Positions 1 through 58,210 of a stretch of 64,000 nucleotides of DNA are shown piece by piece. The notes under the pieces are model-generated. The model was given only the letters and a program-made list of their open reading frames with translations, had not been told where the DNA came from and ran no database searches. Source of the stretch: Takakia lepidozioides. Taxonomy: Eukaryota; Plantae; Bryophyta. Made by a program: the position numbers and the translations under genes. Numbering within the stretch: the first letter of the stretch is position 1; each line of letters starts with the position of its first letter. Location of the stretch: contig CM060732.1 of assembly GCA_030704615.1 (NCBI GenBank), positions 18,476,001 through 18,540,000 on the forward strand, read 5' to 3'.

Positions 1-1020
1 GTGCGGCAAGGCCATGGAATGTGCACCTAGGGTTTCAGAGCTTGGAAGAAGAGCTCTTGCACCACAAGAGAAGTGTCTTGTGGCTGGAAATGTAAGCCTT
101 AGGGTTTCAGGAGCTTGGCAAAGGCTGTGGAGTGCTTAGTCTTGTCTTAGAGAGCATCAAGGAGCCAAGGAGCCAAGATAGGGGGCTGATATCTCTTGTG
201 TGAAGAGGTTGCATGTGTGGAGCATGTATTCAGCTCATTGAAGCTTCCATCTTCAAGCTTGGAGGGCAAGCAAGGAAGAGGGAAGGGCTGACTTCCCTTA
301 TGTGAGGGCAATGCATGTGTGGAGCATGCTATCAGCCTGGTGAAGGCTTGCACTTTTAGGTGTGGGAGTGCAAGAAGGAAGGAAGGGGCTGGTTTCCCTG
401 TAGGGCATGTAGAGCATGCTTTCAGCCTGCTGAAGCTTGTATTTTCAGGTTTGTGGGTGCAAGAAATGAAGCAAAGGAGCTGATTCTCTTATGGTGAGAG
501 TGGGGCATGTGTGGAGCATGCCTTCAGCCCATTGAGGCTCTTGTTTTCAAGCCTTAGAGAGCTAGAACGGAAGGTCTAGGGCTGGTTTCCACTTGGAGTG
601 AAAGAAAAGCACTTGTAGGGCCTATGTGAGTTGGGGTTTCAACTTCAAGCTTGAAGGGAGCGCAACTCTTGAAGCAACAGGTGTAGAGGGCTGGAATAGG
701 CTCTAAGACAGATGCTATGGCCAATGAGAGTGCTTGAATGAGTGCTCACAAGGGCTGGGAACCAGCAGGGCTTGGTTGTTTGCCATTGAGTTTAGTGGCG
801 TGTTTGGGGAGGCTAAGTGAGAAAGAAGGCTTGGTTTGTGGCAACCACCTCATGGCTTAGGGCTACTATGGTGGTGTGTGGGAGCCGAAAGAGCAAGGAT
901 ACCTTGCTGATTTCCTCACAGCCACCATAGCTCGGTGGAAAGAAGCCTAGAGTCCAAGAGACACAAACCCTAGCTTGGCGTGGCTAAACCCCTTGGAGAA
1001 ATGGCTAAACTGCCAGAGCG

Positions 1021-2600
1021 GCCATGTGTGGGGCTGTGACAGGCTGTGGCAAGCTGTGACAGGCTGTGCCCATGGCCTTTGGGGCTGTGACGGGCTGTGA
1101 GGGGCTGTGACAGGCCGTGCCTGAGGCCTTTGAGGCTGTGACGGGCTGTGAGGGGCTGTGACAGGCCGTGCCCATGGCCTTTGGGGCTGTGAGGGGCTGT
1201 GATGGGCTGTGTCAGGCTGTGACAGGCTGTGCCCAGTGGCCTTTGGGGCTGTGACGGCTGTGCGGGGCTGTGACAGGCTGTGCCCTGAGGCCTGTGGGGC
1301 TGTGAGGGGCTGTGATGGGCTGTGCAAGCTGTGACGGGCTGTGATGGGCTGTGATGGGTTGTGACAGGCTGTGCCCTGTGCCCTGTGGGGCTGTGACGGG
1401 CTGTGTCAGGCTGTGACAGGCTGTGCCCAGTGGCCTTTGGGGCTGTGACAGGCTGTGCCCTGAGGCCTGTGGGGCTGTGACGGGCTGTGGCGAGCTGTGA
1501 CAGGCTGTGCCCATGGCCTTTGGGGCTGTGACGGGCTGTGAGGGCTGTGACAGGCCGTGCCTGAGGCCTTTGAGGCTGTGACGGGCTGTGAGGGGCTGTG
1601 ACAGGCCGTGCCCATGGCCTTTGGGGCTGTGAGGGGCTGTGAGGGGCTGTGACAGGCTGTGCCCTGTGGCCCTGTGGGGCTGTGACGGGCTGTGTCAGGC
1701 TGTGGCGAGCTGTGACGGGCTGTGACAGGCTGTGCCCAGAGGCCTTTGAGGCTGTGACGGGCTGTGAGGGGCTGTGACAGGCCGTGCCTGAGGCCTTTGA
1801 GGCTGTGACGGGCTGTGAGGGGCTGTGACAGGCCGTGCCCATGGCCTTTGGGGCTGTGACGGGCTGTGAGGGGCTGTGACAGGCTGTGCCCTGTGCCCTG
1901 TGGGGCTGTGAGGGGGCTGTGACAGGCTGTGCCCAGAGGCCTTGAGGCTGTGACGGGCTGTGAGGGGCTGTGACAGGCCGTGCCTGAGGCCTTTAAGGCT
2001 GTGACGGGCTGTGAGGGGCTGTGACAGGCTGTGGCCCTGTGCCATGTGGGGCTGTGACGGGCTGTGTCAGGCTGTGGCGAGCTGTGACGGGCTGTGACAG
2101 GCTGTGCCCAGAGGCCTTTGAGGCTGTGACGGGCTGTGAGGGCTGTGACAGGCCGTGCCTGAGGCCTTTGAGGCTGTGACGGGCTGTGAGTGGCTGTGAC
2201 AGGCCGTGCCCATGGCCTTTGGGCTGTGACGGGCTGTGAGGGGCTGTGACAGGCGTCCCTGTGGCCTGTGGGCGTGAAGGGCTTTGTCGGCCGTGCTGAG
2301 CCTTTGAGGCTGTGACGGGCTGTGAGGGGCTGTGACGCCGTGCCTGAGGCCTTTGAGCGGTGACGGGCTTTGAGGGGTGGACAGGCGTGCCTGAGGCCTT
2401 TGGGCTGTGACGGGCTGTGAGGGGCTGTGACAAGGCCGTGCCTGAGCTTTGGGGCTGTGAGGGTCTGTGAGGGGCGTGACAGGCCGTGCCTGAGGCCTTT
2501 GAGGCTGTGACAGGCTGTGAGGGGCTGTGACAGGCTGTGCCCAGTGGCCTGTGGGACTGTGACGGCTGTGACCAGTGAGCTGTGGGGCCTGTGCTGGTCT
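1021..2600 (+). repeat. Tandem minisatellite of about 10-bp GCTGTGAC(A/G)G / GCTGTGAGGG units with higher-order ~60-bp organisation, in the retroelement 5' leader
   Basis: Directly visible. It generates the spurious low-complexity minus-strand ORFs. Confidence 0.95.
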
Positions 2601-2860
2601 GTGGTGGCCCGTGTTGACTGTGGTGGCCTGTGCTGACTCGTGAGGCACTGGTGGACTGCCTTAGGACTGGCATGTGGTCTGGAAGGCCGAATTTTGAAGC
2701 TCGTGGAGGGCGGTTTGAGGAGTATCTTCATGATATTCCATGGTCATGCAAGTTCAGGTGTAGGCTATGTTAGGAACTTAGTATTCCAAACCATAAGCCG
2801 CAACAGGTTCTCTACCCGGTTACCTTGTGGAGAGGGGGTTAGGGACATGTTCATGACCGG

Positions 2861-5770
2861 TTGAGTGTCAACACGGAGGTGCCACTAGTTGCTGGGGACA
2901 GTGCCGGTTCGAGCACTAGCGATACTAGTGGGTACACGAGACGAGGTGTGCGGTTTAGGCCACCTTCACCTCCTGTGTCTTCTACGGAAGGTTCTGATTC
3001 GGATTGTGAATCAGGAGGACTCATACCGGCGGTGCAAGTTGTTTCTTTGCCATTGTTGTGGGACACAATGGAGGAGATGTATGGAGCTACCAAGGGGCCA
3101 CGAAGGTACTCTGGGGCGGTGGGCACCATCGAGTTGGATGATTTTATCCAAGAGTTTGATAGTTGGTGTGATTTGCAGCAAATGCGCAATCCACAACTAT
3201 TTACGCCTTTCATGGCATGGAAAGGGCTGTTTCAGCACCTTGAGGGGCCGCCTATGGATGATTACCATGAGTTCAGGCGGGGGCATGAGGTTGAGATCGA
3301 GGAGTGGAGGATGTACTGGTCACCCGACTATGTCTCCATCACTAGGGGCACTAGAGCCACGAGGGCAGTGGCTACACCTGCCGCTGCACCGGCAGCTTCA
3401 GCAAGCAGCAGTGGGACTGGTGGTACAGTAGCTACGACGTCCACCCAAGCCACTACCGCACCAGCACTAGCACCCGTGCCTGCCTTCAACCCTGTTGTGG
3501 AGTTCTTCGAAGAGTTGAGAGGGAACTACCAAGGGGTGAGGACAGAGAAGTTGCGGAGCTTGCAAGAGTTCCAACGGAAGCCGACCGAGAGCTTGAGGGA
3601 GGCTTTCACTCGCATGAGGCGCTTGATAAATGTAACCCAAGGGGTTACGGAAGCTCAGGCAGTCCAATTCTGGTATGGGATATTGGACAAGGAGCTGAGG
3701 AGAAGGGTGCGGGATGCAACTCTCCTACAAGCGGCCCAACCCACCTTAGCAAATGTGTTTTTGCTGGCAGAGCGGATAGAGCTCAACATGGTGGAGGAAC
3801 GAGTGGTCATGGTGGGATTTGCTAAGGAGACACCACGGGGTAGTGGTGCTCCTAGCCAACCACTACCTCAACGTGCTCAAGGCAACAAGGGGGCTCAGGT
3901 GAAGCTCAGGGAAGGGCAGAGAGGACCTCAGATGCAGGGGTCTCTCCCTTCATTTGCTGGCCAACAACGGGCGGATGTGGTGTGCTGGACATGTGGAGGA
4001 CCCCATGTCAAGAAGGATTGCCCAGAGGGAGGCAAAGGGCCGGCACATGCACAGCCTGCACAGTTGCAGTGTGGGCATTGTGGCAAGCACGGGCATGGAG
4101 AGGCCCAGTGTTATGGTTTGCATCCTGAGTTGCGCCCAGGCCAGTTCCAAGGGAACAATGGTGGCCGGGGGCGAGGTGGAGCAGCCCAGAGAGGACGAGG
4201 TGGCCAGCCACGAGGCCAAGGGCAAGCTCAACGTGGCCAAGGACGCGGAGGTCAGGGTGTTGACCAAGGCATGGCCAACCGGCTTCAGCAGCTAGAGCAG
4301 AGGCTCGCTGCCATGGCTACAGCTCAGGTGGTACCGGCTCTAAGGCCGGATGGTCCACCTCCTGCTCCTGAGGGAGGAGATATGGGAGGCATGGGATTCA
4401 TGTGTGGAGCAGCACTACCACTAGTGCAGGTGGAGTCTGCTGCAGCCGTGACTCGAGGAGCAGCACGAGTTCCTGAGCCACGAGGTGCAGAGGTGGAGTT
4501 GGATCCACAGCGTGGGGAGGCAAGCCGTCAGGCTAGGCTTCCTCAGTCATTCACATTGGCGGAGACAGTGTCGACGCCATCCATGGCACCTAGTTCTCGC
4601 CCGACTGTTACCGAGGCGGAGGTTACTATGCCATTGGGGAGAGCTACACGGGTAGCACCACTACCTAGTGTTGCCAAGGCTACGGCAGCTAGTGTGCTGC
4701 TAGGAGCGGCCACATCTGTGTGCCAGGCTCCATTGTTCTCGGCTACCATGATTGCGACGCCGGGGGTAAGACCAGCTGAGGTGTTCAGGCTGGCAGCTAC
4801 ACTCTGTGAGAGTGGGGAGGTTACTTCATCTTCTGCGGAGATAGTGGGAGGTGTAGTGCCGGAGGGATCCTCGGATTTGAGGGTCAAGACTGCCACGGCG
4901 GCGCCATGGCAAGCTGCAGCTGCCAGGTTGATGGAGCTGCCAGCTAGGCCAGCCATTGAGCGCGCCATGGTGACACCTGGAGTTGTCATGTTAGACAACC
5001 AGGATGGCATTTTCTGTTTGAGTGGACCGGCAGGCAAGAGGTACCGGCCACTGCGGGTCTTGTTGGACTCGGGAGCTCAGCCATTGATGCTGGGCAGAGC
5101 TGCTATTGCAGGCTTGGGCCTCACGGAGGCGGATATGGAGCCTTGTCCTTTCCAGATACAGACGTCTCTGGGAGGATCGGAGCAGGCTCGGGGCATGACA
5201 CGGCGTGAGTTGGCTATCAGACTACGGCCGGATCACCCTACAGATGGCTCAGTGATGCGAGCCAAGGCCATTGTGACAGACGCAGTCTCATACGATGTCC
5301 TGGTTGGTGGGGCAGTGTTGTACCCCATGGGCTTCACCCTGGATTTTTGGGAGGAGTCAGCTTCCTATAGGCCTGCATGGCAGTCAGGGGAGGGCCGGCG
5401 TGTGCAGCTCCCTGTGACGTTCATAGGAGGAGTTGCGGTTGCCCAGCGAGGCAAGATGCCGACACTAGCAGCATTCACAGCGGCAGTGAGTTGGCCTAGA
5501 GAGTTGCTTGAGGGCAATGCTCATTCAGAGGATGTACCACCTCCGGGAGAGCAGGATGACATGTATGGTATGGCGGAGTTGCCTACCATGGTTGCTCAGA
5601 CTCCATTGTGGGGCACGAGCAAGGATTTGCAGCGGGATGCTGATCGACGGGTGCAACAAGCCTGGGTGGAGGCTTTTGTACCGTCAGGAGAGGAGGAGAG
5701 TGTGGGGATTGCACCAGGACCACCTCAATTGTCTCCATTGGACACCTATTGTGTGGCAGTATCCGGATGA
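2861..5770 (+). CDS. gag: Gag-protease portion of the retrotransposon polyprotein
   Basis: Capsid-like region (FQRKPTESLREAF...), zinc knuckles CWTCGGPHVKKDC (~3983) and CGHCGKHGHGEAQC (~4070), RG-rich tract, aspartic protease LLDSGA (~5060). The annotated start is TTG; the first ATG is at 3068. Confidence 0.9.
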   Translation: MSVNTEVPLVAGDSAGSSTSDTSGYTRRGVRFRPPSPPVSSTEGSDSDCESGGLIPAVQVVSLPLLWDTMEEMYGATKGPRRYSGAVGTIELDDFIQEFDSWCDLQQMRNPQLFTPFMAWKGLFQHLEGPPMDDYHEFRRGHEVEIEEWRMYWSPDYVSITRGTRATRAVATPAAAPAASASSSGTGGTVATTSTQATTAPALAPVPAFNPVVEFFEELRGNYQGVRTEKLRSLQEFQRKPTESLREAFTRMRRLINVTQGVTEAQAVQFWYGILDKELRRRVRDATLLQAAQPTLANVFLLAERIELNMVEERVVMVGFAKETPRGSGAPSQPLPQRAQGNKGAQVKLREGQRGPQMQGSLPSFAGQQRADVVCWTCGGPHVKKDCPEGGKGPAHAQPAQLQCGHCGKHGHGEAQCYGLHPELRPGQFQGNNGGRGRGGAAQRGRGGQPRGQGQAQRGQGRGGQGVDQGMANRLQQLEQRLAAMATAQVVPALRPDGPPPAPEGGDMGGMGFMCGAALPLVQVESAAAVTRGAARVPEPRGAEVELDPQRGEASRQARLPQSFTLAETVSTPSMAPSSRPTVTEAEVTMPLGRATRVAPLPSVAKATAASVLLGAATSVCQAPLFSATMIATPGVRPAEVFRLAATLCESGEVTSSSAEIVGGVVPEGSSDLRVKTATAAPWQAAAARLMELPARPAIERAMVTPGVVMLDNQDGIFCLSGPAGKRYRPLRVLLDSGAQPLMLGRAAIAGLGLTEADMEPCPFQIQTSLGGSEQARGMTRRELAIRLRPDHPTDGSVMRAKAIVTDAVSYDVLVGGAVLYPMGFTLDFWEESASYRPAWQSGEGRRVQLPVTFIGGVAVAQRGKMPTLAAFTAAVSWPRELLEGNAHSEDVPPPGEQDDMYGMAELPTMVAQTPLWGTSKDLQRDADRRVQQAWVEAFVPSGEEESVGIAPGPPQLSPLDTYCVAVSG

Positions 5771-6730
5771 AGGCATTTGTCTTCTGGACTTGTTTGGCGG
5801 GATCAGCACCGGATTGGCTGCTGTGTTACAGGCAGGTGTACGAGTTCGGCGTTACCTGTATGTGGAGAGGGATGAGACTGCACGACGCGTTTCACTTCGC
5901 CATGTTGCTCAGTTGGTGCAGCGGTACCCTGAGTTGTTGTCGGTGTCTGCAATTCGTGGATATCAGCAGGCCTTGCCAGCAGACATTTCGTTGCTGGGGG
6001 CGCAGGATTTGGAGCGGGTTGGCTCCATTGATCTGGTAGTGGCAGGTTGGCCCTGCCAAGGGCATTCATCAGCCGGGCATGGCAATGGATTGCGAGACTC
6101 GAGGTCGGGTCTGTTTTGGGAGATGGTGCGGGTTTTGCGCCACTTGCAGCTTCATCAAGCTGTATCTCCAGCATACATCTTGGAGAATGTGCCACTGATG
6201 GGCGATTCTCGGGCCAGGGTGATGGCCAGTGTGCATCAAGTCCGGTCGTGGCTTGGGTCAGCAGTGTTGCTAGATGCAGCTACAGTGGGGTCACGGGCTC
6301 ATCGTCCACGGCTATGGTGGACTAACTGATGCCACCCGCACTGCTCAAGCGTGCATTTGATGGGGTGCAGCGGCCAGCACATCTCACAGTGGATAACATT
6401 CTGGACACAGGGAGGCAGTCTCAACGTGTGAGACACGATGACCGTTCGCCTTTGGCAGTGGTCAACAAGGTGGGTCAACCACGAGCAGCATTACCTACAC
6501 TGCTCAGCTTCCCAGGATCGCATGCTTTCCGGGATAGTGGACCTGGCCTCCTGTGGGATGCTCAGTTGCAGCAGTTAGTGGAGCCTAATGCTGACGAGCG
6601 TGAGCGGGCAATGGGTTTTACCACTGGTACCACGGCGGTGTCGTCTCTTTCTGAGGCATCACGTCGTCAAGTGTTGGGGCAAGCAATGGATCTCAATTGC
6701 TTGACCTGGATTATCAGCTTGGCTCTGGCT
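5745..6730 (+). CDS. DNMT3-like C5 DNA cytosine methyltransferase domain within the retrotransposon polyprotein, split by a 1-nt frameshift near 6327
   Basis: Motifs in order: I LLDLFGGIS, II YVERD, III ADI, IV AGWPCQG (catalytic PC, ~6048-6060), V SGLFWE, VI YILENV (~6183), VIII AHRPRLWWTN, IX RERAMGF, X RRQVLGQAM. Confidence 0.92.
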
Positions 6731-7021
6731 GAGCAACGCAGAGTGCGGAATACACTTCCCTCAATGGTCTCTCTGCCTACCGAGACGGTACAGGCAGTGA
6801 GTGGGGGCGAGCATGTGAGGACCACGGGGTGCATGCATCCATGGCACACGTGGGAGGTGCTCGAGGTTCAGAGGGAGTTGGCAGCCAAGGCGGCTGTGAT
6901 GGATGAGGTTGGGGATTCTTCTCGGGTTGAGGAGGTCCTCAAGGATGAGATGATGGGGCAGGATGAGGCCTTGTCATTGACTGAGCAGGCAGGGAGTACT
7001 GCTCAAGAGGTTGCAGCATAG

Positions 7022-9913
7022 CAACCACGGGACGCGTCCTCTACCTCTAAGCCCACTGGACTTAAGGTTGTAGTTACGGAGGACAATTGGGAGCCTGACA
7101 TTGGACCCATTGTCACCGGAGGAGAGAGACGACGTATACGGCGGTTCCTGAGGGCTTACAGGAATTGCTTTGCCTTCAGTTTGAAGGACTTGGGAGCACT
7201 GAAGGGTCAAGAGATCCGTATTGAGTTGGCCACTGACACGCCAATCTTTCGGAGACCCTATAGATACAGTGACATGGAGAGGTCTTTGATTCAGATGAGG
7301 ACTCAAGATCTCTGGGAGGCAGGTTTGGTGGAGCTCTCTGGTGGAGAGTATGCTTCAGCCACAGTGATGCCAGCCAAGAAGGATGTCTATGGCAATTGGA
7401 CGGAGAGACGTATGTGCGGTGATTACCGGCCTGTAAATCGTCAGACCAAGTCCGATAAGTATGCCATGCCAACACCAGAGGAGATCTTTGATGCCATCGG
7501 GCATGCTAAGGCCTTTAGCACTTTGGATTTACGATCCGGATATCACCAGTTGCCAATCAAGGAGGCGGACAAGCAGAAGACGGCATTCTGGGGGATCAAT
7601 GAGCACGGCAAGGATTGCCTATATCAGTGGCGGTTCTTACCATTTGGGCTTAAGAATGCTCCTGCAGAGTTTCAGAGAGTCATGGATAGGATTCTAGCAG
7701 GGGTGGACTTTGCTCGGTGCTACATAGATGACATCATCATCTTTAGTGTTACGATGGAGGAGCATGAGAGACACCTTCAGGTGGTATTGGAGCGCTTGAG
7801 AGCGCACGGATTGAAGTTGCATCCGGGGAAGTGCAAGTTTTTCCACAACCAGATTGAGTATCTGGGTCACATGATATATCCTGGAGGATTGGGGGTACAG
7901 CAGACTAAGGTAGAGGCCATTGCACAAATTCCACGCCCCACGGATGTGAGCCGAGTTCGAGCTTTCATGGGGTTGGCAAACTATTATAGACGGTTTGTCA
8001 AGGGATTTAGTACCATTGCAAAGGCTCTAACCAAGCTGACCAAGGTGGACCAGGAGTGGCAGTGGGAAGATGAGCAGGAACGAGCTTTTCAAGAGCTCAA
8101 GGCGAGGTTGACCTCGGCGCCTATCTTGAGACGACCTATCAGGGGGCGTCCCTTTCAGCTGCATACGGATTGGAGCATGCTGGGGCTTGGAGCGGTGCTC
8201 ACACAGGTGGATGATGAGGGAAGAGAGTTCGTAGTGGCTTACGCTAGCCGCTCGAACAACGCTGCAGAGGCTAAGTACAGCTCATATGAGGGAGAGTGCT
8301 TAGCTGCAGTGTGGGCCGTGGCACACTTCAGGTGCTATCTATACGGCAATCTTTTCACCCTTGTCACGGATCACCAGCCACTCAAGTGGTTGATGGAGTC
8401 AGACAAGCTTACGGGGAAGCTTGCACGGTGGGCACTTATACTCCAGGAGTATGACTTTCAGGTTGTGCATCGACCGGGTTTGGTCAATCGGGATGCGGAT
8501 GGATTGAGTCGCAATCCATGCATGAGCCAGCAGGATGACACTGGAGCTCGGTGGCATGGTGAGACGGACGAGGAGATGGTGCCGGGATGGCACGCATCTG
8601 CATTTTTGTGTATCTTGGCATCGGGAGGTCAGATTGGACCTACAACAGGGATGACTGTAGACGGAGTGTCTGAGGACCCTGAGGCTAGTGATGAGCTAGG
8701 TGGTGCCAGAGATATACATGAGGATTCGGCTGTGTTGGACTACCTCCGCACGGGAGACACGGCAGCCATTGTGACTGCCAGGGAGAGGGATCGGATCCTG
8801 CAACGAGCCAAGAGGTTCAAGTGGGAGGGGATACACCTACTTCGAGTGTGGGAGGATGGTCGGGTGAGGATTGTGCCTCACCCCACACAGCGTGCACGGT
8901 TAGTGCGGCATGCCCATGAGGAGTTGGGGCATTTTGGAGTGCGACGCACTCACAGTTTACTGCAGGGGCAGTATTGGTGGCGTGGTATGCATACAGAGGT
9001 GCAACAGTTTGTGGCTAGGTGCATGGTGTGTGACAGGGTGCGTGCTTCATTCAACGCCCCTACACCACAGTTGCATCCTTTACCAATCATGGGATTGGGC
9101 TACAGGTGGAGTCTTGACTTCGCAGGACCGTTGCCACTGACTATGCGCCACCACAGATATGTGTTGGTGATGGTGGAGCACTTCTCCAAGTGGATTGAGT
9201 TGGTTCCATTGCCTGACAAGGCTAGTGAGGGGGCTGCGTATGCATTCTTGGATCGTGTGCTTAGCCGATTTGGTGCTCCAGCTGAGGTACTCACGGACCA
9301 AGGGAGAGAGTTCTTGGGGGAGTTTCAGGCTTTGTGTGATAAAGCCTTGATAGACCACCGCACCACTTCTCGGGATCATCCTGAGGCCGATGGCTTAGCA
9401 GAGAGAGTTGTTCAGACGGTGAAGAGGGGTTTGCGCAAGTATGGCTTGCAGAAGGGACACCTAGGAGATTGGGATCTTCAGGTTCCTTGGTTAGCCATGG
9501 GCTACAGGTTCAGCAAACAAGCATCACTTGCCTCCTTCTCACCATATTTCCTTCTCTTTGGCCGAGAGCCGGATTTGCCTGCAGCCATTCGTAGGGACAC
9601 TGCTCAAGTCCTTAACCTTGACGATCCGGACGTGTGGGTACGTGCATGTGATCAGCGTGCAGAGTTGTTCAAGAAAGTCATGCCCATGGCTTTTGAGAAC
9701 CTTGCCATTGCACAGCACCGTGATACGTTGAGGTATGCCACTATACGTGGTGGAGGATATCGTCCTGGGGTTCGGAGGTTTAGCCCTGGTGACTATGTTT
9801 ATTTGCAGCAGACTGCTCCTACGACTCTGGATGTTACTGCAGGGCGTGTTATTCTGAGGGTTCGAGAGGTGTTGCCCTCAGGGGTCCTGATCTTGAGGGT
9901 CGGGATGGCATGA
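7022..9913 (+). CDS. pol: Pol: reverse transcriptase, RNase H, integrase
   Basis: RMCGDYRPVN, LDLRSGYHQ, PFGLKNAP, YIDD (RT); LHTDWS, ECLAAVWA, TDHQPL, ADGLSR (RNase H); HHCC HAHEELGH...CMVC, SLDFAG, LTDQG, LAER (IN). The frame is open from just after the TAG at 7019-7021. Confidence 0.96.
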   Translation, partial: QPRDASSTSKPTGLKVVVTEDNWEPDIGPIVTGGERRRIRRFLRAYRNCFAFSLKDLGALKGQEIRIELATDTPIFRRPYRYSDMERSLIQMRTQDLWEAGLVELSGGEYASATVMPAKKDVYGNWTERRMCGDYRPVNRQTKSDKYAMPTPEEIFDAIGHAKAFSTLDLRSGYHQLPIKEADKQKTAFWGINEHGKDCLYQWRFLPFGLKNAPAEFQRVMDRILAGVDFARCYIDDIIIFSVTMEEHERHLQVVLERLRAHGLKLHPGKCKFFHNQIEYLGHMIYPGGLGVQQTKVEAIAQIPRPTDVSRVRAFMGLANYYRRFVKGFSTIAKALTKLTKVDQEWQWEDEQERAFQELKARLTSAPILRRPIRGRPFQLHTDWSMLGLGAVLTQVDDEGREFVVAYASRSNNAAEAKYSSYEGECLAAVWAVAHFRCYLYGNLFTLVTDHQPLKWLMESDKLTGKLARWALILQEYDFQVVHRPGLVNRDADGLSRNPCMSQQDDTGARWHGETDEEMVPGWHASAFLCILASGGQIGPTTGMTVDGVSEDPEASDELGGARDIHEDSAVLDYLRTGDTAAIVTARERDRILQRAKRFKWEGIHLLRVWEDGRVRIVPHPTQRARLVRHAHEELGHFGVRRTHSLLQGQYWWRGMHTEVQQFVARCMVCDRVRASFNAPTPQLHPLPIMGLGYRWSLDFAGPLPLTMRHHRYVLVMVEHFSKWIELVPLPDKASEGAAYAFLDRVLSRFGAPAEVLTDQGREFLGEFQALCDKALIDHRTTSRDHPEADGLAERVVQTVKRGLRKYGLQKGHLGDWDLQVPWLAMGYRFSKQASLASFSPYFLLFGREPDLPAAIRRDTAQVLNLDDPDVWVRACDQRAELFKKVMPMAFENLAIAQHRDTLRYATIRGGGYRPGVRRFSPGDYVYLQQTAPTTLDVTAGRVILRVREVLPSGVLILRVGMA

Positions 9914-10155
9914 CTTGGAAAGACCATGTGCGTAATTGTGCGCCATGTCACCTTCCCAATGTCGATGGCAGAGTTGACCCAAACTTGGCAGTGGTACCTG
10001 CAGGTTTGAGGTGCATGCTCTGTGGGTCTGCCAAAGGGGCAGCCACCATGCTGGTGTGTGATCGATGCTCAAGGGGTTGGCATATGGGATGCTTGACACC
10101 ACCTCTTGAGAAGGTTCCTGACGGAGATTGGTTGTGTCCACACTGCTTGGGATAG
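9910..10155 (+). CDS. PHD finger (C4HC3) at the integrase C-terminus, joined through a 1-nt frameshift near 9895
   Basis: CMLC...LVCDRCSRGWHMGCLTPPLEKVPDGDWLCPHC is a canonical PHD pattern. Restoring one G in TTGAGGGT gives a continuous ...LILEGRDGMTW... Confidence 0.92.
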   Translation: MTWKDHVRNCAPCHLPNVDGRVDPNLAVVPAGLRCMLCGSAKGAATMLVCDRCSRGWHMGCLTPPLEKVPDGDWLCPHCLG

Positions 10156-10415
10156 TGGCAGTGGACATGACTGGAGGCAGCTAACAAGACATGGGAGGCC
10201 AAGCTCATAGGAGTCAATACATGAGATCCCAAGCTCAAGTTCACAGGTTGCAAGACGGCGACTAACGATGGGGCAACTCTTGCACCCGGCCTCTTGATCT
10301 ATCGAGTTTGAGTGTAGTAGGGATAGTGGTGGAGGACTTAGTGAGGCTATGGTCACTATCACATCTTGTGGCTACCTGGACTTAGAGGGACCTAAGCACC
10401 AGCTAGGGGGGCGAT

Positions 10416-11121
10416 TGTGTGGACTAGTGACTGCCATAGTGGGCAGCGTAGTGGCAGCCTAGTGACTGACTAGTTGTAGCCTAGTGGTTGGACTAGTGGT
10501 TGGACTAGTGGTAGACTAGTGGTATACTAGTGTGTGGTGTGCACATGTGTTGTGTGGTTTTGGACAGCGATGTAGTTGTGTAGCGATATGTATGCGCACG
10601 ACAGCTGTCAAGTTATTTTACCACTAGTGTGAAACTAGCTAGGAAATAGCTATCTTTTACATATTGACATTTGGGATTGGCCCAAGTGTCAATCCAGGGG
10701 TCAAGGCAGATTTAGGCCCTGGAGTGGTTATCTTCACGGCAAGCGCGGGAGGCTCATCTTTCTCGAGTTGAGCCTCACCGCGCCTAGCTATGGCGCCGTA
10801 GTGTGGATTCCCCATGGCGTGGGGTGCACTTGGCTTGACTTGTATTTGAGTGATGAGGTTATATATGCATGAGTTTATGCTTCAGCTTTGTGAGCTCGCA
10901 TGAGCTTGAGCTTGTATTCTTCTTCTTTATCATTGTGTGGACTAGTGACTGCCACAGTGGGCAGCGTAGTGGCAGCCTAGTGACTGACTAGTTGTAGCCT
11001 AGTGGTTGGACTAGTGGCTGGATTAGTGGTAGACTAGTGGTATACTAGTGTGTGGTGTGCACATGTGTTGTGTGGTTTTGGACAGCGATGTAGTTGTGTA
11101 GCGATATGTATGCGCACGACA
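10416..11121 (+). repeat. 3' LTR (706 bp, TG...CA) with 188-bp direct repeats at both ends (10416-10603 and 10934-11121)
   Basis: Starts just after the PPT and ends GACA at the junction with an interrupted CACTA-internal repeat unit. Confidence 0.8.
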
Positions 11122-13748
11122 ACCATCCTACTTGAGCATGTGCGCGAGTTTTTGGTGATGGCGTTCGAGGGGAGGGAGAACCCAGTTGTATGTCTCTCTC
11201 CTTCTTTAGATTCCGAGCTGCTTTATCAAGCTCTTGGATTTTTTCAATGACATTGTTGTCCTTTCGAATTCGTCAAGGAATCGAGGATGCCACCAAAGAA
11301 GTTTAGGATGCGCCTAATCCGAGGATCTCTAGAAGTTTTATACAAAGCAAAATCATTCGAAGTTGTGCTTATCTCTACCATCCCTACCTGAGCATGTGCA
11401 CGCATTTTTCTGTGACGAAGAGTATTGCATCGATTGCAATTGCGTCGTTCTGTGAAAAAACCATTCGAATTCGTCAAGGAATCGAGGATGCCACCAAAGA
11501 AGTTTAGTATGTGCCTAATCCGACGTTCTCTAGAAGTTATCTAATGTATCTAGATGTTGACTCCGGAGAGTGGAGACAACGATCTTGAAAACCAATAACC
11601 ACGATTTTGAAATAAAGCCAAAGCTTTTTACAAAGCGAAATCATCCGATGTTGTGCTTATCTCTACCATCCTACCTAAGCATGTGCGCGAGTTTTTTGTG
11701 ATGACATTCAAGGAGAGGGAGAACCCAGTTGTCTGTCTCTCTCCTTCTTTAGATTTCGAGGTGTTTTCTCAAGCTCTTGGATTTTTTCGATGAGATTGTC
11801 CACCTTTTGAATTCGTCAAGGAATCGAGGATGCCACCAAAGAAATTTTATTATGCGCCTAGTCCAAGGCTCCCTAGAAGTTATCTGATGTATCTACATGT
11901 CAACGTTGTCTCCTGATATTGAATGCCTACTACAACTCAGGTGATTATGTGAAACAACTCCCACAAAAACAACGACGTGCAACTAGAGCAAGTAATGCAA
12001 ATTGGCACTAAGACTCTACGCTATACAAATTACATGGAGGTGGAAATGTTAATGGGATCTCATCCGATGCGAAATCATCCGAGGTTGTGCTTCTCTGTAC
12101 CATCCTACCTGAGCATGTGTGCACGTTTTTCTGTGACGAAGAGTATTTGGGACCGATTGCAATTGCGTCGTTCTATGACAAAATATCGTCAAGGAATCGA
12201 GGATGCCACCAAAGAAGTTTAACATGCACATAATCCGAGGTTCTCTACAAGTTATCTGATGTATCTAGATGTGAATGTTGTCTCCTGACAGTGGATGTTT
12301 GCTAGCTACGACTTATGTGATTATGTCAAACAACTCCCACAAAGACAACGACGTGCAATTGGAATGCAACGATGTGCAATTGTATTGTATTCATGATTTG
12401 ATTTGATGATTTGTTGATTTGAAGTTTGATTTGATATTGATTTTAAAATAAGGCCAGAGCTTTATACACCGAATGATCTCCAACAAGAATGATCTGCTTC
12501 AGTTCCTTCATCTGGGTGATAATATCAGTCTCTACTTCTACTTGTTGTGCATCTTCATCAATTATTACGCAATTAAAAGCTTCAACGATCGTTGGCTTTC
12601 TATGGAGACAGTGCAAAAAAACAATGCAAACATTCTCCATGCATTCTATCTCCAACCATTCCAGTGATGTATCTAGATGTCAACGTTCTCTCCTGACAGT
12701 GGATGTTTGCTACGACTTAAATGATTATGTCAAACAACTCCCACAAAAGCAACGACGTGCAATTATATTGCATTTGCACTCCAAGATTGGGTTCTCTTCA
12801 AGTTCATGCATTGTTGATGAGCATATTTCTTAATGTTGCTTATCTTTTGAAACTTTGTATATGTGATTTGGACATACTTAAGCGCGTGTGGATCAAATAT
12901 GAGCTTGAACCAAGTTCATTCAATGAGTCATTCAAGTATTGAACACATCTACGTGTTTTAGAGACGAAAAACTACATTTCGTTTGCACATGATTTTATTT
13001 TTATTCCGTTCTTAAACCATATGCTTAATGACAGCATATGCAATGTGCGTGAAAAATTTGAGAGTGAATAAAAACAATTTAGCCCCAAAATCGTATTTTC
13101 TTCCCTCATTTGCACTCCAAAGTTGAGTTGTCTTCAACTTCATGCACTATTCATAGAGAATTATGCAATAGTGAACGAAGAAAATATTTTTTTTATATTT
13201 TATTTATTTTTGGTCCAATATTTTGCACGGATGTAGTGGTGCAAGGGTCAAATTCACAAAACAAAACACAACCAAAAAACAATTATTACGTAACAACAAT
13301 CCCCAATCCTAGACCTTCAGGCAAGAGGGCACTTGCAACACCCCAACAGGCCTACGACTGCGAGGAATCGCAACCTCGCCATTGTGGCATTTCGGTGACG
13401 TCTGAACATCGCAAAACCCAATGCGAGCTGACTCGGCCCTTCCCACACGCCTAAGTGTGAGGGGGTGTTGTTGCGATTCCCGACAGTCGCAGCCTTACGG
13501 GAACGTCGCAGAGGATACGTGCGACGCCCGGGCGTCGCAACCCTCACCTCGCTGGCGGATCATGCCCGAGCAGCAGCGACGTGGCGGAATTGCAAGCAGG
13601 CGAAGCGTCACCGAAGCGGCGCGGCAACGACAAGCCGACGTCGCAATTTCCAGGCCGGGCGCCTGCGCGGCGCTGCAGTCGCAGGAGGGTCGTCGTGTCC
13701 GGCATGCCCGAGGTCCCGGCGTCACTAACCCCCCTAAACGTAGTAGTG
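11122..13748. mobile_element. Right arm of a CACTA (En/Spm) element that hosts the Gypsy-DNMT insertion
   Basis: Terminal ...CGTAGTAGTG (reverse complement CACTACTACG) at 13739-13748; subterminal TGCGAC/GTCGCA repeats at 13350-13700; 12830-13270 is homologous to 42950-43420 in the second CACTA; degenerate tandem units GAATTCGTCAAGGAATCGAGGATGCCACCAAAGAA. Confidence 0.75.
12470..12590 (-). pseudogene. Captured fragment of a UPF1/SEN1-like SF1 helicase
   Basis: FNCVIIDEDAQQVEVET...KQIILVGDH matches the IIDEAxQ and LVGD motifs. Confidence 0.65.
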
Positions 13749-16600: not shown

Positions 16601-16948
16601 GAGGAGACCCATCTTCTCTAGAAGGGCGGGAGGGGGAGCAGCTGCCATGAGAGAGGGGGAGCGTTTAAGACATGAGGATGCGGAGATGTGCTTTGCTGCA
16701 GCAGGGTGCACTTGTTAGATGAATTTTGACAAAGAGGAGCTGACCAGGGTCCCACTTCAGATAGTGCCGGGGTCTGAACTGCAAGCAGATGCGGAGGAGG
16801 TGTACATAAGAAAGTGGAAGCAGAGAGAAGAGACAGCGTTGGGGAGGAGGGTGGGCGGAGTAAGACATTCTTACCAGGGATGGCGAGGATGATGGAGCGT
16901 ATGGGGAAAGTTGGGCCCTCTTGGTAGTTTTGACGTAGGGAAGGAAAC

Positions 16949-34901: not shown

Positions 34902-37900
34902 TGTCATGGTTTTGTTTGTGATTAGTTAGAAATAGTTATTTCTAGCTAATTAGGACATTATACATTTATATTTGTATTTTGTTGGCATTGGGACTTCATT
35001 TGGTTCCATGTGCCAAGTGAGGTGACGAACCTCACTTGGGACGTGGAGAAGTTATCTCCACGTGAGACGTAGGCGGGCTCGTCGTCTTCTTCTAGTCGAG
35101 CATTCCGAGGCATCTCTCGCCGCCATAGCTCTAGTACTTGAGATGGAGAGTGGGTGAGGTCTGTATGGTGGAGTCAATTAGAAAGGTGTCATTGGCTTGA
35201 CTTATATAACATGATAGAGTGGGTTCACCTCTTTCACCATTTCCGTATCACTAGAAGAAGACTTGCTTACATCTATGAGTGCAAGGTGTTAGCATAGTTA
35301 GCACTTGTGTTTTAAAGAGAACTTGATAGAGAGCTTTTGTATTACAAGGTGTTGCAAGGTTTGCAAAGAAAGTCCTTGTGGTGTTTATGCACAGAAAAGA
35401 GAGCCCCATTGCAAAGTTTGAGAGCTTGTGAAGAAAGCTCTTGTTCTCCAAGTGTTGCAGGGTTTGAGGATTTCAAGAAGAGCTCGGGTGTTAACCAAAC
35501 AAGCGGTGCATGTGTGGAGCATGGTTTCAGCTTGTAGGGGTCTTCAACTTCAAGCTTAGGAAAGTTAGGAGTGAAGGGAGAAATCTGATTTCTCTTCTGT
35601 GCAAGATAGTGCATTTGTAGAGCATGCTTTAAGTTGGGGTTTCAATCTCAAGCTTGAGAAGAGCATGTCTATGGAAGTGACAAGTGCAGGGCTGGAAGAG
35701 GAGCTCTAAGGGGTGCACTATGACCATGGAAGAGAGCACTATGAGTGCATACAATGGTTAGAAGAGGGTATGTCATAGAAAGCTCAATAACTTGTTCTAT
35801 GTTTGTTTCAATGAGTTATGGAGAAAGAGAGCTTATTGTGTGGCAAATAGCTAGCTCAGGGAGTTAAAGACACTCTTGGTGGTCCATTGATGCCCAAGAA
35901 ACCAAGAACAACACCTCTGGTTGCTCCATAGAAGCCATAGCTCGTTGGCAGCAATCGCAAAGCCAAAGCGGCACAAACCCTAGCTTGGGAATGTGTGGGA
36001 ACGCTTGAAAACGCATGTGAACTCTTTGGGAACGCGTGGGAACATTGCCCCAGGGTTGGGAGCACCACCATTGAGCCATCGGATGAACTATTGAGCCAGT
36101 GGATGAAAATCGGTGCTCTTGGATGAGAATCGGTCGCGGTGAATGAAATCTGCACCAGTGGATGAAATCTTGGTATCGGATGAAATATCGCACTATTGAA
36201 TGAAAAATCACGGCGCCGGATGAAACTGCGGCAACGGATGAACTATCGCGCCATCGGATGATAAATCACGGCGGCGGATGAAATATCGCTGCGGCGGATG
36301 AAATTGCGCCAGCGGATGAGATATCGGACCTGCAGATGAAAAATCGCAGTTTTGGATGACATTTGGTCAGCAACGGATGACAAATCGACTGTTAATGGAT
36401 ATTCTTGGGGCCTTTTGGGGGCTGTTTGGGGTCTATTGAGGCTAGTATTATGCAGGCTTGTGGAGCCTTCTTGGGGCTGTTTGAAGGCCAATGTTTTGCA
36501 GGCCTGTGGAGCCTTGTGAGGACTGTTTGGAAGACGATTGAAGGTCCTTGGAGGCCCATATTGGGCAGACTTGTGGAGCTGTTTAAGAGCTCTTTGGGGG
36601 ACTATTGGAGGTTCTTGGATGCCAATACTTGGCAGATTTGTGGAGCTCCTTAAGGGCTGTTTGGAGGACTATTGGAGGTCCTTGGAGGCCAATACTTGGC
36701 AGATTTGTGGAGCTTCTTAAGGGCTGTTTGGAGGACTATTGGAAGTCCTTGGAGGCCATATTGGGCAGGCCTGTGCGGCCATTGTGAGGGTTGGTTGGAG
36801 GCTGGTTGGGGACTTTGGAGGCCATTATTTGGCGGGCGCTTAGGGCCTTCGATGGACTGTTTGGAGTCCAAGTTTTCGGATTTCTTGAGCCTCGGTGGGT
36901 TTATGTGAGGGGTTGATTGAGCGTAGATTTCAGAAGTTTGTGGGGATAATTGGAGGGCTCTTTTGAGAGTTATTTGAGAGATCCTTGAAGGATAGTCTTG
37001 TCTAGTGCCCAAGCAAGAGTGTGTGTGAAGATAGGGGGAGTAATGGGATGAGAGCATTTTGGGCTTAGAGATTGCTTTAACTTCCCTTCTCTATAGTCTT
37101 TCATCATCCTTGTAGGCCAAAGTTTTTCCGTAAATGGAGGCAGAGCTAGTTTGAATAGAGACTTGGTCATCTTGCAGGTTTTTGGAGCCGCAAGGAGGTC
37201 GATTGATTTAAGGTGTGGGAGGTGTTGTTGTTTGAGTTTCCTGTGTTTGGATCATCCTCCCACACATGCATGCTTGACTGTGCGCCATGCTAGTTTGGTT
37301 TGGGTGCTTGCTTTTATAGGTGGTTGGTCCGGAAATATTGTGGCCAGCCAACCCTAGAGCGTGTTGTCGATGGTGAGGCTGGGGTGATGACCAGCAGACC
37401 ATAGGAGTGCCTGCAGTGGATGTAGGTGCAGGTTCATGTTAGGAACCTAGTATTCCAAATTACCATAAGCTGCAACAAGTTCTCTATCTGGTTACCTTGT
37501 GGAAAGGGGGATTAGAGACAGGTTGATAGCCGGTTTGAGTGTGAGTTTTCATCACGGAGGTGCCACCTCTGAGGAGAGTGTCGATATGAGCACCAGCAAT
37601 TCTAATGGGTATACAAGACGAGGTGTGCGGTTAGGCCACCTTCACCTTCACCTTCAGTGTCTTCTGAGGAAGGTTCAGACTCAGAGTTAGGAGGATTATC
37701 GCCGAGGGTGCAAGCCATTTCTGTGACATTGTTGTGGGATACGATGGAGGAAATGTATGGAGCTACCAAGGAGCCACGTCGGTACTCTAGAGCTGTGGGC
37801 ACCATCGAGCTTGATGGTTTCATACAGGAGTTTGATAGTTGGTGTGATTTGCAATAGATGCGCAATCCACAACTGTTTACGCCTTTTATGGCATGGAAGG

Positions 37901-39624
37901 GGCTGTTTCAGCACCTTGAGGGGCCGCCTATGGATAACTACCATGAGTTTAGGTGGGGAAATGAGGTGGAGATTGAGGAGTGGCGACAATATTGGTCACC
38001 TGACTATGTCTCCATCACTAGATGTACAAGGGCAGCAGCGATACCAGCAGCTACACCAACATCCCCAACTGCAGCACTAGTAGTGGGACAAGTGGTACAG
38101 GAGCTGGGAAATCCACTCAAGCTTCTGCTGCAGCATGAGCACCCGTGCCTGCCTTTAACCCAGTTGTGGAGTTATTCGAGGAGTTGAGGAGAAACTACCA
38201 GGGAATAAGGACAGAGAAGTTGCGGAGCTTGCAAGAGTTCCAGGGAGGCCTACTGAGAGTTTGAAGGAGGCTTACACGCGCATGAGGCGATTGGTAAATG
38301 TAACCCAAGGGGTTATAGAAGCTCAGGCAATCCAATTCTGGTATGGGAGATTGGATAAGGAGCTGAGAGAAGGGTGCGGGATGCAACTCTCCTACAAGTG
38401 GCCCAACCTACCTTAGCAAATGTGTTTTTGCTGGCAGAGCGGATAGAGCTCAATATGGTGGAGGAGCGAGTGGTCATGGTGGGATTTGGTAAGGAGACAC
38501 AATGAAGTGGGGCTCATAGCCAACAACAACCACTACCCCAACGTGCTCAAGGCAACAAGGGGGCTGAGGCAAAGCCCAGGGAAGGACAGAGAGGATCTCA
38601 GATGCAGAGGTCTCTCCCTTCATTCTCAGGCCAACAATAGTCGGTGTGTGACATGTTGGGATTGTGGAGGACCCCATGTTAAGAGAGATTGCCCTGAGAG
38701 AGGCAAAGGGCCGACACAGGTACAGCCTACACAACCACAGTATAGGCATTGTGGCAAGTATGGGCATGAGGAGCTCCATTGTTATGACTTGCATCCTAAG
38801 CTGTGGCCTGGCCAATTCCAAGAGAAAAATGGAGGCCGAGGACGGGGCAATGTGGTCTAGAGAGGTAGAAGAGGCAGAGGTCGTGGTGGAGGTCATAACC
38901 AAAACCAATGAGCACAGGGTCAAGTTCAAGGTCATGACCAAGGCATGGTGGATAGGCTTGCCCAGCTAGAGCAACGGCTTGCTGCCATGGCCATTACTCA
39001 TGTTGCGCCAGCCCAAGTGTGTCAGAGGTAGAGTCACGAGTGCCATTGGAGAGAGTTGGTGTGGCTCGGGAAATGCCAGTGGGTGGTGTTGCAAAGCAAG
39101 GTGCAGCCAGTACATTGTTGGGGGCGGCTACGGCAATTCGCCAAGCTCCATTGTTTTCTGCCACGACCATTACAATGTCGAGGATTCGGCCAGCTGCAGT
39201 ATTTAGACTGGCGGGTGAGAGTGATGATGCATCGGCACTATCTACGAGGATAGCGGATAAGGTGCAGTTCATGGATACCCTGGATTCAAGGGTGAAGACA
39301 ACCATAGCTGCGCCATGGCAAGCGGCAGCTGCAAGGTTGCAGGAGTTGCCAGCTAGACCAGCCATTGAGCGGAGTATGGTGACTCCTGGAGTAGTCTTGG
39401 TGGACAACCAGGATGGTGTGTTTCAGTTGGGTGGCCCAACCGGGAGGAGGTATAGGCCACTGCGGGTCTTGTTGGACTCGGGAGCACAGCCATTGATGTT
39501 GGAAAGAGCAGCAATTGTAGGCTTGGGCCTTATAGAGGCGGATTTGGAACCTTGTCATTTCCAAATTCAGACATCTTTGGGTGGTTCAAAGAAGGCGCGA
39601 GGGATTACACGCCATGAGCTCTTT
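34902..39624 (+). mobile_element. Degenerate sister copy of the Gypsy element (LTR-like start, leader, gag, protease), truncated by a CACTA insertion
   Basis: Near-identical peptides to ORF 2861 (LLWDTMEEMYGATK, MRNPQLFTPFMAWKG, VLLDSGAQP) with stops and frameshifts; starts TGTCA with patchy similarity to 10606-10932. Confidence 0.88.
36080..36830 (+). repeat. Two tandem arrays in the leader of the second Gypsy copy: ~20-bp GGATGAAA units (36080-36380) and ~62-bp GGGCTGTTTGGAGGACTATTGG units (36400-36830)
   Basis: Directly visible. Confidence 0.85.
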
Positions 39625-39842
39625 CACTACAAGGAATAGGTGTTTTTTGCACCCGACTCGCGGTTGCAATTCTGTCTGAAACGACTGCGCGTGGGACTCC
39701 AGGTTGCCATCGCAGTCGTTTTTATGCCACGCTGGCATAAAGGATGGAGTATACAAGTCACAGAAGTGAACTCCGGGGTTCACGCCGATTTATAGGCTAA
39801 TTTCCAAAAATCGGGAAAAACATATTTTTTATATTATCGACC

Positions 39843-46084: not shown

Positions 46085-46855
46085 TCTTTTAAGCTCCCGA
46101 TGAGATAAATTCAAGTCAGATGGTGGGTTCATGTGCAACATATGTCCAACACCAGATATCCTAAGTTAATAGACTCTATATCTTGGAAACAGGACTGCCC
46201 TGTCAAACAGGCTAAGCCCTGGCAGAAGAGAGTAGAAGAGATTCTCAAGGATCTACATCTGGACCCACAAAGTCTTGACCTTGCTGGATAAACCTGACTT
46301 AGAGAGTGTAGTGTCCAAAGCCATGTCTGTTACCAGAAAATTGTCCGATGAAAATGAAGTTAGGAAGAAAACTTCCGGGCTGAACCTGTTTCCAGTCTGT
46401 GACATGGGGGAGGACATCATGGATGCGCCCAAGGGTCTATCCCACTCTTGGCATCAGACTGAAATTTAAACTCAGGGTAGGAAGCCTACCTTTGAACAGT
46501 AAACAGAAGCAGAGAGGAAATGGAGAGTGCAATTGCCCGTTGTGTGGGCAACCTGAAGACAATATTCATTTTCTGATGTCCGAGGTTCTCTCACCAAAGA
46601 GACGCTCTCTTCAAATCTATCAAGGGAATTATGCATGTACCTCTGTTTACTAACTTTGAAAGTCTCGAGGCTGAGCCAAAAGCCCAGCCCCTTCTGAGGC
46701 CTAGTTTTTGGGCAACTCACACACAACAGATTGATGCTTATGTGAAGGGATTTCTAGAGGATATCTGGAAAACCCGGATTAACTCTATATGTGAAGGTAA
46801 GTCTTACTACCAACGTCAGCCCCTGACAGAGATAGGATCTGTCCCTTTTGTTTCC
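46085..46855 (+). mobile_element. Fragment of the RTE-like LINE 3' half; a further piece lies at about 47645-47740
   Basis: RWWVHVQHMSNTRYPKLI (RWxGHVxRM-like) and CPLCGQPEDNIHF; matches 51760-52160 on the opposite strand. Confidence 0.82.
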
Positions 46856-58083: not shown

Positions 58084-58210
58084 TCTTACGCACACGCTGT
58101 TCCATCATCTCTCGCCTCCAGTGGTGTTCTGAGAGTTTTCTGATCCGGTCTTTCCTTCTCCCTCAGAAGGATCTACGTCGCAGCCATCTGGAGTTGCACA
58201 GCAGTCCTCC

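Follow-up and report, generated by a model that had tools for sequence, protein, structure and literature searches.

A DNMT3-type methyltransferase domain, a conserved stop codon, and split terminal repeats in a Ty3/Gypsy retrotransposon family of a land plant

The 64,000-nucleotide stretch of DNA analyzed here (Takakia lepidozioides contig CM060732.1, positions 18,476,001 to 18,540,000; hereafter the window) contains, from 3068 to 11121, a Ty3/Gypsy element encoding gag, protease, and a C5 cytosine methyltransferase domain (DNMT), followed by a TAG stop and then by reverse transcriptase (RT), RNase H, integrase, and a PHD finger. The protease-RT-RNase H-DDE integrase order of Ty3/Gypsy is present. 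Matches to DNA_methylase, RVT_1, RT_RNaseH, Integrase_H2C2, rve, and PHD exceed their Pfam cut-offs; those to gag and protease fall under the cut-off, and both regions align to relatives (Table 1). No Chromo match, which would mark a chromovirus, was found after the integrase in the window, and the PHD finger stands at that place. An earlier note on this DNA had placed a Gypsy polyprotein with a DNMT between protease and RT at 2861 to 10155. The position of the domain stands, but a continuous polyprotein with RT does not, because the conserved TAG separates the two, and the element reaches further, through 3' repeats ending at 11121 and to a 5' end before base 1.

The open reading frames (ORFs) on the + strand run from 2843 (ATG at 3068) to 5770, in two overlapping frames across 5763 to 7021, from 7022 to 9913, and in a short frame ending at 10155. 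The window copy is a frame-broken member of an abundant family, with breaks near 5741, 6326, and 9894. Contigs from four of four sequencing runs carry extra letters at all three sites, so that sister copies unbroken at those sites exist; the breaks in the window may be real mutations or assembly errors. The 5' repeat of the main copy was looked for, with none found within the window, and probably lies just before base 1. Parts of the leader between 210 and 978 match the leader, at 35502 to 35988, of a second, truncated relative that is 74 to 80% identical to 2756 to 5209. The TGTC start of this second copy lies about 600 nt upstream of the leader match, its A-like stretch matches at E 4e-4, and its leader carries a different, 67-nt array (36434 to 36865).

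Table 1. Features of the element and of its truncated relative, in window coordinates
Feature	Positions	Strand	Remarks
Long 5' leader with G-rich tandem array at ~1024-2600 (10- and 51-nt periods)	1..3067	+	presumed part of the element
gag, two zinc-knuckle-like motifs (3983, 4070)	3068..4960	+	ORF 2843-5770; Retrotrans_gag E 0.006; 49% identity to Marchantia P0005 residues 1-869
Aspartic protease, LLDSGA at 5060	4961..5420	+	weak Pfam match, E 0.047; relatives pass Pfam protease families; omega 0.17
DNMT3-type C5 cytosine methyltransferase domain, motifs I-X	5763..6736	+	frame breaks near 5741 and 6326 in window copy
Conserved UAG stop and CARYYA (predicted readthrough site), DNMT and RT in same frame	7019..7027	+	
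Reverse transcriptase, YIDD at 7721	7406..7876	+	RVT_1 E 4e-33
RNase H	8063..8452	+	RT_RNaseH E 1e-35
Integrase, H2C2 finger and DDE core	8882..9382	+	E 2e-16 and 1e-13
C-terminal PHD finger, stop at 10153-10155	10012..10155	+	PHD E 2e-11; frame break near 9894 upstream
Polypurine-tract-like AGCTAGGGGGGCG	10401..10414	+	conserved in relatives
Repeat B, first copy, GACA end	10415..10603	+	98% identity to 10933-11121
Palindrome GACA-GC-TGTC at B/A junction (predicted integrase attachment site)	10600..10609		same or GACA-NN-TGTC in L007, L033, L051, L053, L058, L060, L161
Repeat A, TGTC start	10606..10932	+	second copy is the 5' end of the element in relatives
Repeat B, second copy, right element end (GACA)	10933..11121	+	host tandem repeat follows
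Second, truncated relative: TGTC start, A-like stretch, leader, gag, partial protease	34902..39639	+	stops before DNMT

All of the methylase motifs that the earlier note had read in order, including the catalytic PC and ENV, were located on the + strand: I LDLFGG (5784), II YVERD (5859), III PADI (5976), IV WPCQG (6048), V RSGLF (6102), VI ENV (6183), a VII-like DAA (6273), VIII AHRPRLWWTN (6297), IX ERERAMGF (near 6596), and X RRQVLGQAMD (6662). These ten motifs lie in order across 5784 to ~6690, with PC, ENV, and RxR present, and the Pfam DNA_methylase search that the note had proposed matched 5490 to 6326 (E 2e-13, with 50.7 bits where the cut-off is 22). As a stand-in for the broken copy we took a natural relative, P0001, which shares 79% identity with a 188-residue piece of the window domain. 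Among solved structures, its best sequence match was DNMT3A (E 6e-12), followed by DNMT3B/C, DRM (1e-8 to 2e-4), bacterial enzymes (HhaI, 4e-3), and DNMT2; a 55-sequence profile gave the identical ranking (DNMT3A 4e-29, DRM 5e-17, HhaI 5e-10). The structure model of P0001 (pLDDT 92.3) had DNMT3A/B as its top folds, with Z scores of 29.2 for DNMT3B (rmsd 2.6, 279 residues aligned), 25.4 for M.MpeI, 22.8 for HhaI, 19.5 for DNMT1, and 18.5 for DNMT5; DNMT2 scored lower than DNMT3, at 21 to 23. Judged through this relative and its model, the domain is nearer to DNMT3 than to DRM, DNMT1/CMT, DNMT2, DNMT5, or bacterial enzymes, in line with the DNMT3 likeness that the note had seen in motifs VIII and X. 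Identity as a DRM was rejected, because DNMT3A/B rank first by both sequence and fold.

The domain is under purifying selection, like RT and integrase, as judged from Nei-Gojobori omega (dN/dS) between the window and 80 metagenome loci, mostly of one family, with saturated pairs excluded from the medians. Median omega was 0.10 for the first DNMT piece (73 loci, of which 66 were unsaturated in dS and 7 excluded) and 0.09 for the second (69 loci, 15 unsaturated and 54 excluded), compared with 0.06 for RT, 0.05 for RNase H, 0.08 for integrase, 0.17 for protease, and 0.28 to 0.41 for linkers. The catalytic Cys is retained in 72 of 73 loci and the Asn of ENV in 73 of 74, and the residues that bind S-adenosylmethionine (SAM) and those of catalysis are among the most conserved columns of the domain. 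Variants within the host covered 35 coding sites from a biased top list, 23 of them synonymous; the DNMT contributed three synonymous sites of six, too few to use.

In the window copy the TAG at 7019 to 7021 separates DNMT from RT, and a stop is found shortly before RT in all 52 of the 81 loci that span both domains. Decay as the origin of this stop was rejected, since it is conserved across the 52. The triplet CAR follows it in 49 (35 TAG, 14 TAA), and DNMT and RT share one frame in 41. In the window, L004, L058, L059, L060, L080, and L161, the second codon after the stop is CCA, TCA, TTA, or CTA, three amino acids that share one YYA pattern; across divergent lineages the flanking amino acids vary and TAG-CAR-YYA is constant. 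L060 and L161 are each made up of two long ORFs with only this stop between them, and the ORF1 proteins of Marchantia and Calypogeia likewise terminate just past the DNMT. The hexamer CARYYA is the tobacco mosaic virus (TMV) signal described as stimulating readthrough (PMC4132726). A conserved in-frame stop followed by CAR(YYA) implies readthrough, and RT-integrase is very probably made in this way, which would leave the methylase at Gag stoichiometry. RNA structure downstream of the stop in eight loci scored z -0.6 to -3.0 by a crude shuffle, with no common fold established. In-frame fusions of DNMT and RT occur in P0065, P0231, and P0101. The ORFs of P0101, P0105, and P0095 start shortly before the DNMT and continue into RT; recoding may there take place ahead of the DNMT, or the contigs may be cut.

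Eighty-one longer proteins match the DNMT domain, the named ones from Calypogeia, Marchantia, and Sphagnum (mostly 61 to 79% identity), Closterium (47 to 48%), and Klebsormidium (51%, with 65% of the query aligned). RT-RNase H shares 79 to 86% identity with the best liverwort proteins and 75% with P0085, a Coleochaete transcript-derived protein. In run X2, possibly derived from the sequenced sample itself, 103,029 contigs aligned to the element, and 30 of 30 bins, those of the DNMT included, were covered in four of four runs from three studies; contig depth over the element does not equal copy number, and the family is clearly very large in the host. A broad library search yielded 269 clusters with a DNMT match at E up to 1e-30. 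The 145 new representative matches place the DNMT between RNase H and integrase in 59 cases and before RT in 4, with no RT visible in 82; among ten of these looked up, one was named, as a Scenedesmus pol. The order RT-RNase H-DNMT-integrase was seen in 17 of 22 long proteins scanned, 15 of the 17 having a PHD finger as well. This second architecture, RT-RNase H-DNMT-integrase-PHD, belongs to a sister group comprising P0225, P0267 (Scenedesmus), and 57 further representatives; a G-patch is present in P0314 as well.

In 58 proteins with both domains, RT and DNMT distances are correlated (r 0.69, 0 of 999 permutations), although related sequences share such signal, and the DNMT tree repeats 18 of the 25 well-supported splits of RT. 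IQ-TREE joined the RT of the window with liverworts (99/97) and then with Coleochaete (96/93), and the post-RNase H group had support of 98/95. The pre-RT group, with the Klebsormidium elements, is a split in both the DNMT and the RT tree, with support of 0.98 for DNMT and 92/90 for RT (unrooted, with a thin outgroup); the ingroup was picked by similarity and the outgroups numbered four or five. With relatives 70 to 79% identical in Marchantia, Calypogeia, and Sphagnum, an omega near 0.1, and agreeing trees, these comparisons mark the DNMT as no one-off capture; it was likely captured once in the lineage. By the same groupings the window element is of one lineage with the Klebsormidium elements, which also includes those of Closterium and the second-layout elements of Scenedesmus. 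The occurrence in land plants that the note had put forward thus holds, but a separate land-plant equivalent does not.

Outside eukaryotes, a single-protein scan of viral contigs gave no relatives, and a profile search covering 4 of 64 parts brought up nothing nearer than distant methylases, the best at 26%; that match, L081:6001-6882, is nearly full length. Prokaryote genomes yielded two loci, of which one is a weak match and the other a complete retrotransposon contig binned with a bacterium, so that no close bacterial donor was seen. The contig, L161:1-9285, is an intact DNMT3-Gypsy element in a cyanobacterial genome bin, with contig ends that overlap by 127 nt. Together with P0047, a related protein under a bacterial name, it represents eukaryotic contamination of prokaryote databases.

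The repeats of the element are unusual in their arrangement. Behind the PHD finger, a conserved G-rich tract (the putative polypurine tract, PPT) is followed by B, the dinucleotide GC, A, and B (Table 1), and in relatives the 5' end is repeat A alone, giving the terminal form A-internal-PPT-B-A-B. Two complete flanking long terminal repeats (LTRs) were not found; the repeats are split, in a long form, A-internal-B-A-B (six 3' ends and the window), or a short form, A-internal-B (seven). Target duplications of 4 bp were present at six of six testable relatives, three long (L033, L051, L061) and three short (L026, L062, L071), and the same six loci, with both ends resolved, start with TGTC and end with GACA or a one-base variant; L043 and L007 were not usable for the duplication test, and the 5' end of the window copy is beyond the stretch analyzed. 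A canonical LTR pair was rejected because the repeats are split, and DIRS/Ngaro identity was rejected because a DDE integrase (rve, H2C2) is present and 4-bp duplications are seen. By its proteins the element is filed as a Gypsy-derived variant and not as a canonical LTR element. The host tandem repeat at 11122 to 12765 is its insertion site, and the repeat unit has ACCA at the insertion point.

The palindrome GACA-NN-TGTC stands at the B/A joint in the window and seven loci. Because repeat B begins directly after the PPT, the LTR produced by reverse transcription should be B plus A, and the integrated ends would lie inside that LTR. No TGG-type tRNA primer site was seen after the 5' A; a 9- to 14-nt complement inside A in four of five loci, where A also has a hairpin, suggests self-priming. 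We think it probable that reverse transcription yields B-A-internal-B-A, that its ends are joined into a two-LTR circle, and that integrase opens the circle at the 5' palindrome, its two cuts staggered by 2 nt as in processed retroviral ends, to give the long form; the short form may come from later recombination. HIV-1 integrase is described as able to cut a palindromic 2-LTR junction (PMC1905944), and a CA/NN/TG palindrome as integrase substrate is predicted likewise for this element. In retroviruses, however, junction cleavage is a side route at the LTR-LTR joint, whereas the palindrome here is a dedicated one inside the LTR and apparently the standard end.

The most serious competitor, which we hold to be possible though the less favored, dispenses with the circle: linear cDNA would be trimmed at internal palindromes, or template switches would add the terminal B, and the short form would arise by B-B recombination. 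It draws support from the mirror form A-B-A-internal-B, which a symmetric circle model predicts and which occurs at none of the 21 resolved 5' ends, from the nearly equal numbers of short and long 3' ends, and from the chance that short-read assembly collapsed repeats. A trimmed linear B-A-internal-B-A, however, yields only A-internal-B, while the long form requires the end of A to be joined to the start of B, and that A/B joint is exact in four cases and has extra bases in one (n = 5), as in end-joined circles. In L014:5531-5819 and L017:11156-11444, a partial A, a primer-site remnant, and B are joined without a coding region, either as a miniature derivative or as an untidy circle joint.

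The observations favor, as the probable overall explanation, a model in which translation of ORF1 (Gag, protease, DNMT) ends at the conserved UAG and RT-RNase H-integrase-PHD is made only through occasional readthrough. The methylase would then be present at the level of capsid protein, be packaged in many copies per particle, and methylate the element's new cDNA, so that new copies would arrive premarked before circle opening and insertion. The earlier note had conjectured packaging of this kind, with methylation of new cDNA or of the insertion site. That the domain is an active enzyme seems to us very likely; that it acts chiefly on cDNA of the element itself we favor by a narrower measure, as the simplest account, since both domain positions keep the DNMT in the particle and the catalytic residues are conserved. 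Whether the PHD finger steers insertion to chromatin lacking H3K4 methylation is close to evenly balanced. Its nearest solved fingers are those of CHD4, KDM5B/5A (KDM5 PHD1), PHF12, ATXR5, and PHF21A, and fingers such as those of CHD4, KDM5 PHD1, and PHF21A read unmethylated H3K4.

Several results weigh against this model. There is no extra CpG loss: CpG observed/expected at codon joints is 0.27 to 0.48 in the element and 0.14 to 0.41 in neighboring LINEs, and 0.59 to 0.74 in L161. The domain of KnitGypsy-Dnmt3, the Klebsormidium nitens element, gave no methylation in yeast, a result termed inconclusive there, human DNMT3B being inactive in the same test (PMC5890265). The full CARYYA is found in 6 of the 49 loci with a stop and CAR; most of the other 43 have CAACCC and come from a single decayed family in which an ATG stands two codons further on. 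The stop loci, moreover, are not independent of one another, since they include one large family and some duplicates. The support of 92/90 that links Klebsormidium P0075 to the remaining pre-RT elements is not starred, dS is near or at saturation in the selection test, and the trees held retrotransposon-type proteins with no cellular or host DNMT3 included, which bears on an origin from a host DNMT3.

It is unlikely, in our estimate, that the methylase acts mainly after nuclear entry, on integrated copies or flanking chromatin, damping the element or shaping the host methylome. Such a role, an option raised in PMC5890265, would fit a predicted Gag-level abundance beyond the need of one cDNA, a PHD finger on the integrase that links the element to chromatin, and the very large family in the host. 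The domain, however, lacks a chromatin-reading module of its own, and the larger sister group, in which the DNMT follows RNase H and precedes integrase (59 of 145 new representative matches), places it on cDNA-bound proteins.

Less likely again is expression of RT-integrase by splicing, with the TAG as a 3' acceptor, or by re-initiation. Ogre elements splice between protease and RT, TTTGC(A/G)TAG looks like an acceptor site of plants, and the Sphagnum-type family has an in-frame ATG after the stop. Against this, all unbroken lineages retain one frame on both sides of the stop, the upstream linker is open, constraint is found 3' of the stop (CARYYA) with a variable 5' context (ACGGAC, ATGGAT, GCTACTAAG), and the ATG is lacking in the window, L004, L058 to L060, L080, and L161.

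We give slightly less weight still to retention of the domain for a role other than DNA methylation, such as nucleic acid binding, particle structure, RNA methylation, or a decoy for host enzymes. The negative yeast result (PMC5890265) and the missing CpG footprint could be read in this way, but conservation is among the highest at the SAM-binding and catalytic positions, the fold is closest to DNMT3, with DNMT2 lower, and the dinoflagellate retrotransposon DNMT3 domains are described as active on CG (PMC5890265).

An algal or contaminant origin of the stretch, or a one-off capture, is already largely refuted: algal relatives exist and such contigs contaminate bacterial bins (L161), yet the nearest named RT relatives are liverworts (79 to 86%, forming a clade with the window at 99/97), all bins are covered in every run, and a neighboring LRR receptor kinase has its best match among 168 candidates (60%) in a cluster with a Sphagnum jensenii protein, so that the host is likely a bryophyte. 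The land-plant host assumed by the earlier note is thereby upheld, and none of the three outcomes that it had named as fatal came true: the DNMT is present across the family, dN/dS is far from 1, and relatives and neighbors are bryophyte-like.

The LRR receptor-like kinase gene lies at 26882 to 29535 (-) in two pieces, likely split by an intron. Elsewhere in the window are decayed LINE-type elements at 14036 to 18751 (-) and 51697 to 54610 (-), with an inverted fragment of one at 46380 to 46855, a MITE-like sequence at 63003 to 63313 (49-nt inverted repeats 213 nt apart), and an ORF of 358 codons at 58133 to 59209 (+) with a signal-peptide-like start, repeats of about 30 residues, and no Pfam family above cut-off.

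Why a transposon carries its own silencing enzyme has been a question since 2018, in hosts that are hard to work with. The close relatives in Marchantia polymorpha, a genetic model, make the question testable, and the conserved stop predicts the stoichiometry of the enzyme. Internal palindromic ends, if confirmed, would account for the so far unexplained DIRS-like repeats of KnitGypsy-Dnmt3 and suggest that a DDE integrase routinely inserts circular cDNA. Elements without paired LTRs would escape standard LTR finders. In Marchantia, models such as Mp_4g09160 and Mp_8g17980 (P0005, P0007) are ORF1 annotated as host genes, some labeled DNA methyltransferase, which can distort DNMT counts. We offer only tentatively the broader picture of an ancient green-plant Gypsy lineage, still living and numerous in mosses and liverworts, that combines a single DNMT3 capture, two domain positions, leaky-stop overproduction, methylation of its own cDNA, and integration as a circle that its DDE integrase opens at a palindrome midway along the LTR, a third mode between classical LTR elements and DIRS.

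The kind of element is already known. KnitGypsy-Dnmt3 was described by de Mendoza et al. in 2018 (PMC5890265) as an acquisition in the K. nitens lineage, and a later source gives DNMT-carrying retroelements, after that work, as those of "streptophytes and dinoflagellates" (PMC12344493). The spread found here points to an origin older than the K. nitens lineage. The literature searched, with most subscription papers and Repbase outside its coverage, contained no account of a member from land plants or chlorophytes, of the conserved stop, or of internal ends, and the available text of PMC12885004, PMC9033089, and PMC11982613 had nothing on such elements. Among the plant Ty3/gypsy lineages of REXdb (Neumann et al. 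2019, PMC6317226), which belong to the same superfamily and in some cases share 4-bp duplications and self-priming, the main text makes no mention of PHD, methyltransferase, or Marchantia.

As in the window element, the catalytic domain of DNMT3A/3B and moss DNMT3 has the same motif order and fold, but the element's domain is only about 22% identical, has insertions, and lacks PWWP/ADD or the plant accessory domain. With TMV-type UAG-CARYYA and retroelement gag-pol readthrough (PMC4132726) it shares the stop codon and 3' hexamer, although the usual stop follows gag and this one follows protease and DNMT. SymbioDIRS-Dnmt3 of Symbiodinium likewise has a DNMT3 in a retrotransposon polyprotein, two domain positions, and split direct repeats, and its methylation of CG has been demonstrated (PMC5890265); it has a tyrosine recombinase where the window element has a DDE integrase, and its host is a dinoflagellate. 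KnitGypsy-Dnmt3 is closest: Gypsy domains, an intronless, unrearranged DNMT3 domain before RT under purifying selection (Ka/Ks under 0.2), and DIRS-like split repeats, A-coding-B-A-B (PMC5890265); Klebsormidium P0075 has the same protease-DNMT-RT-RNase H-integrase order and groups with the window element by RT as well as by DNMT. In contrast to KnitGypsy-Dnmt3, the window element resides in a land plant, in a very large family, and its DNMT ends ORF1 at a conserved stop in the frame of RT, whereas that of KnitGypsy-Dnmt3 lies in Pol, in the same ORF as RT. For KnitGypsy-Dnmt3, the main text of PMC5890265 describes no PHD finger, internal palindromic ends, or 4-bp duplications, and it makes no mention of PHD, Marchantia, or Physcomitrella; the conserved stop and the internal palindromic ends are the additions made here.

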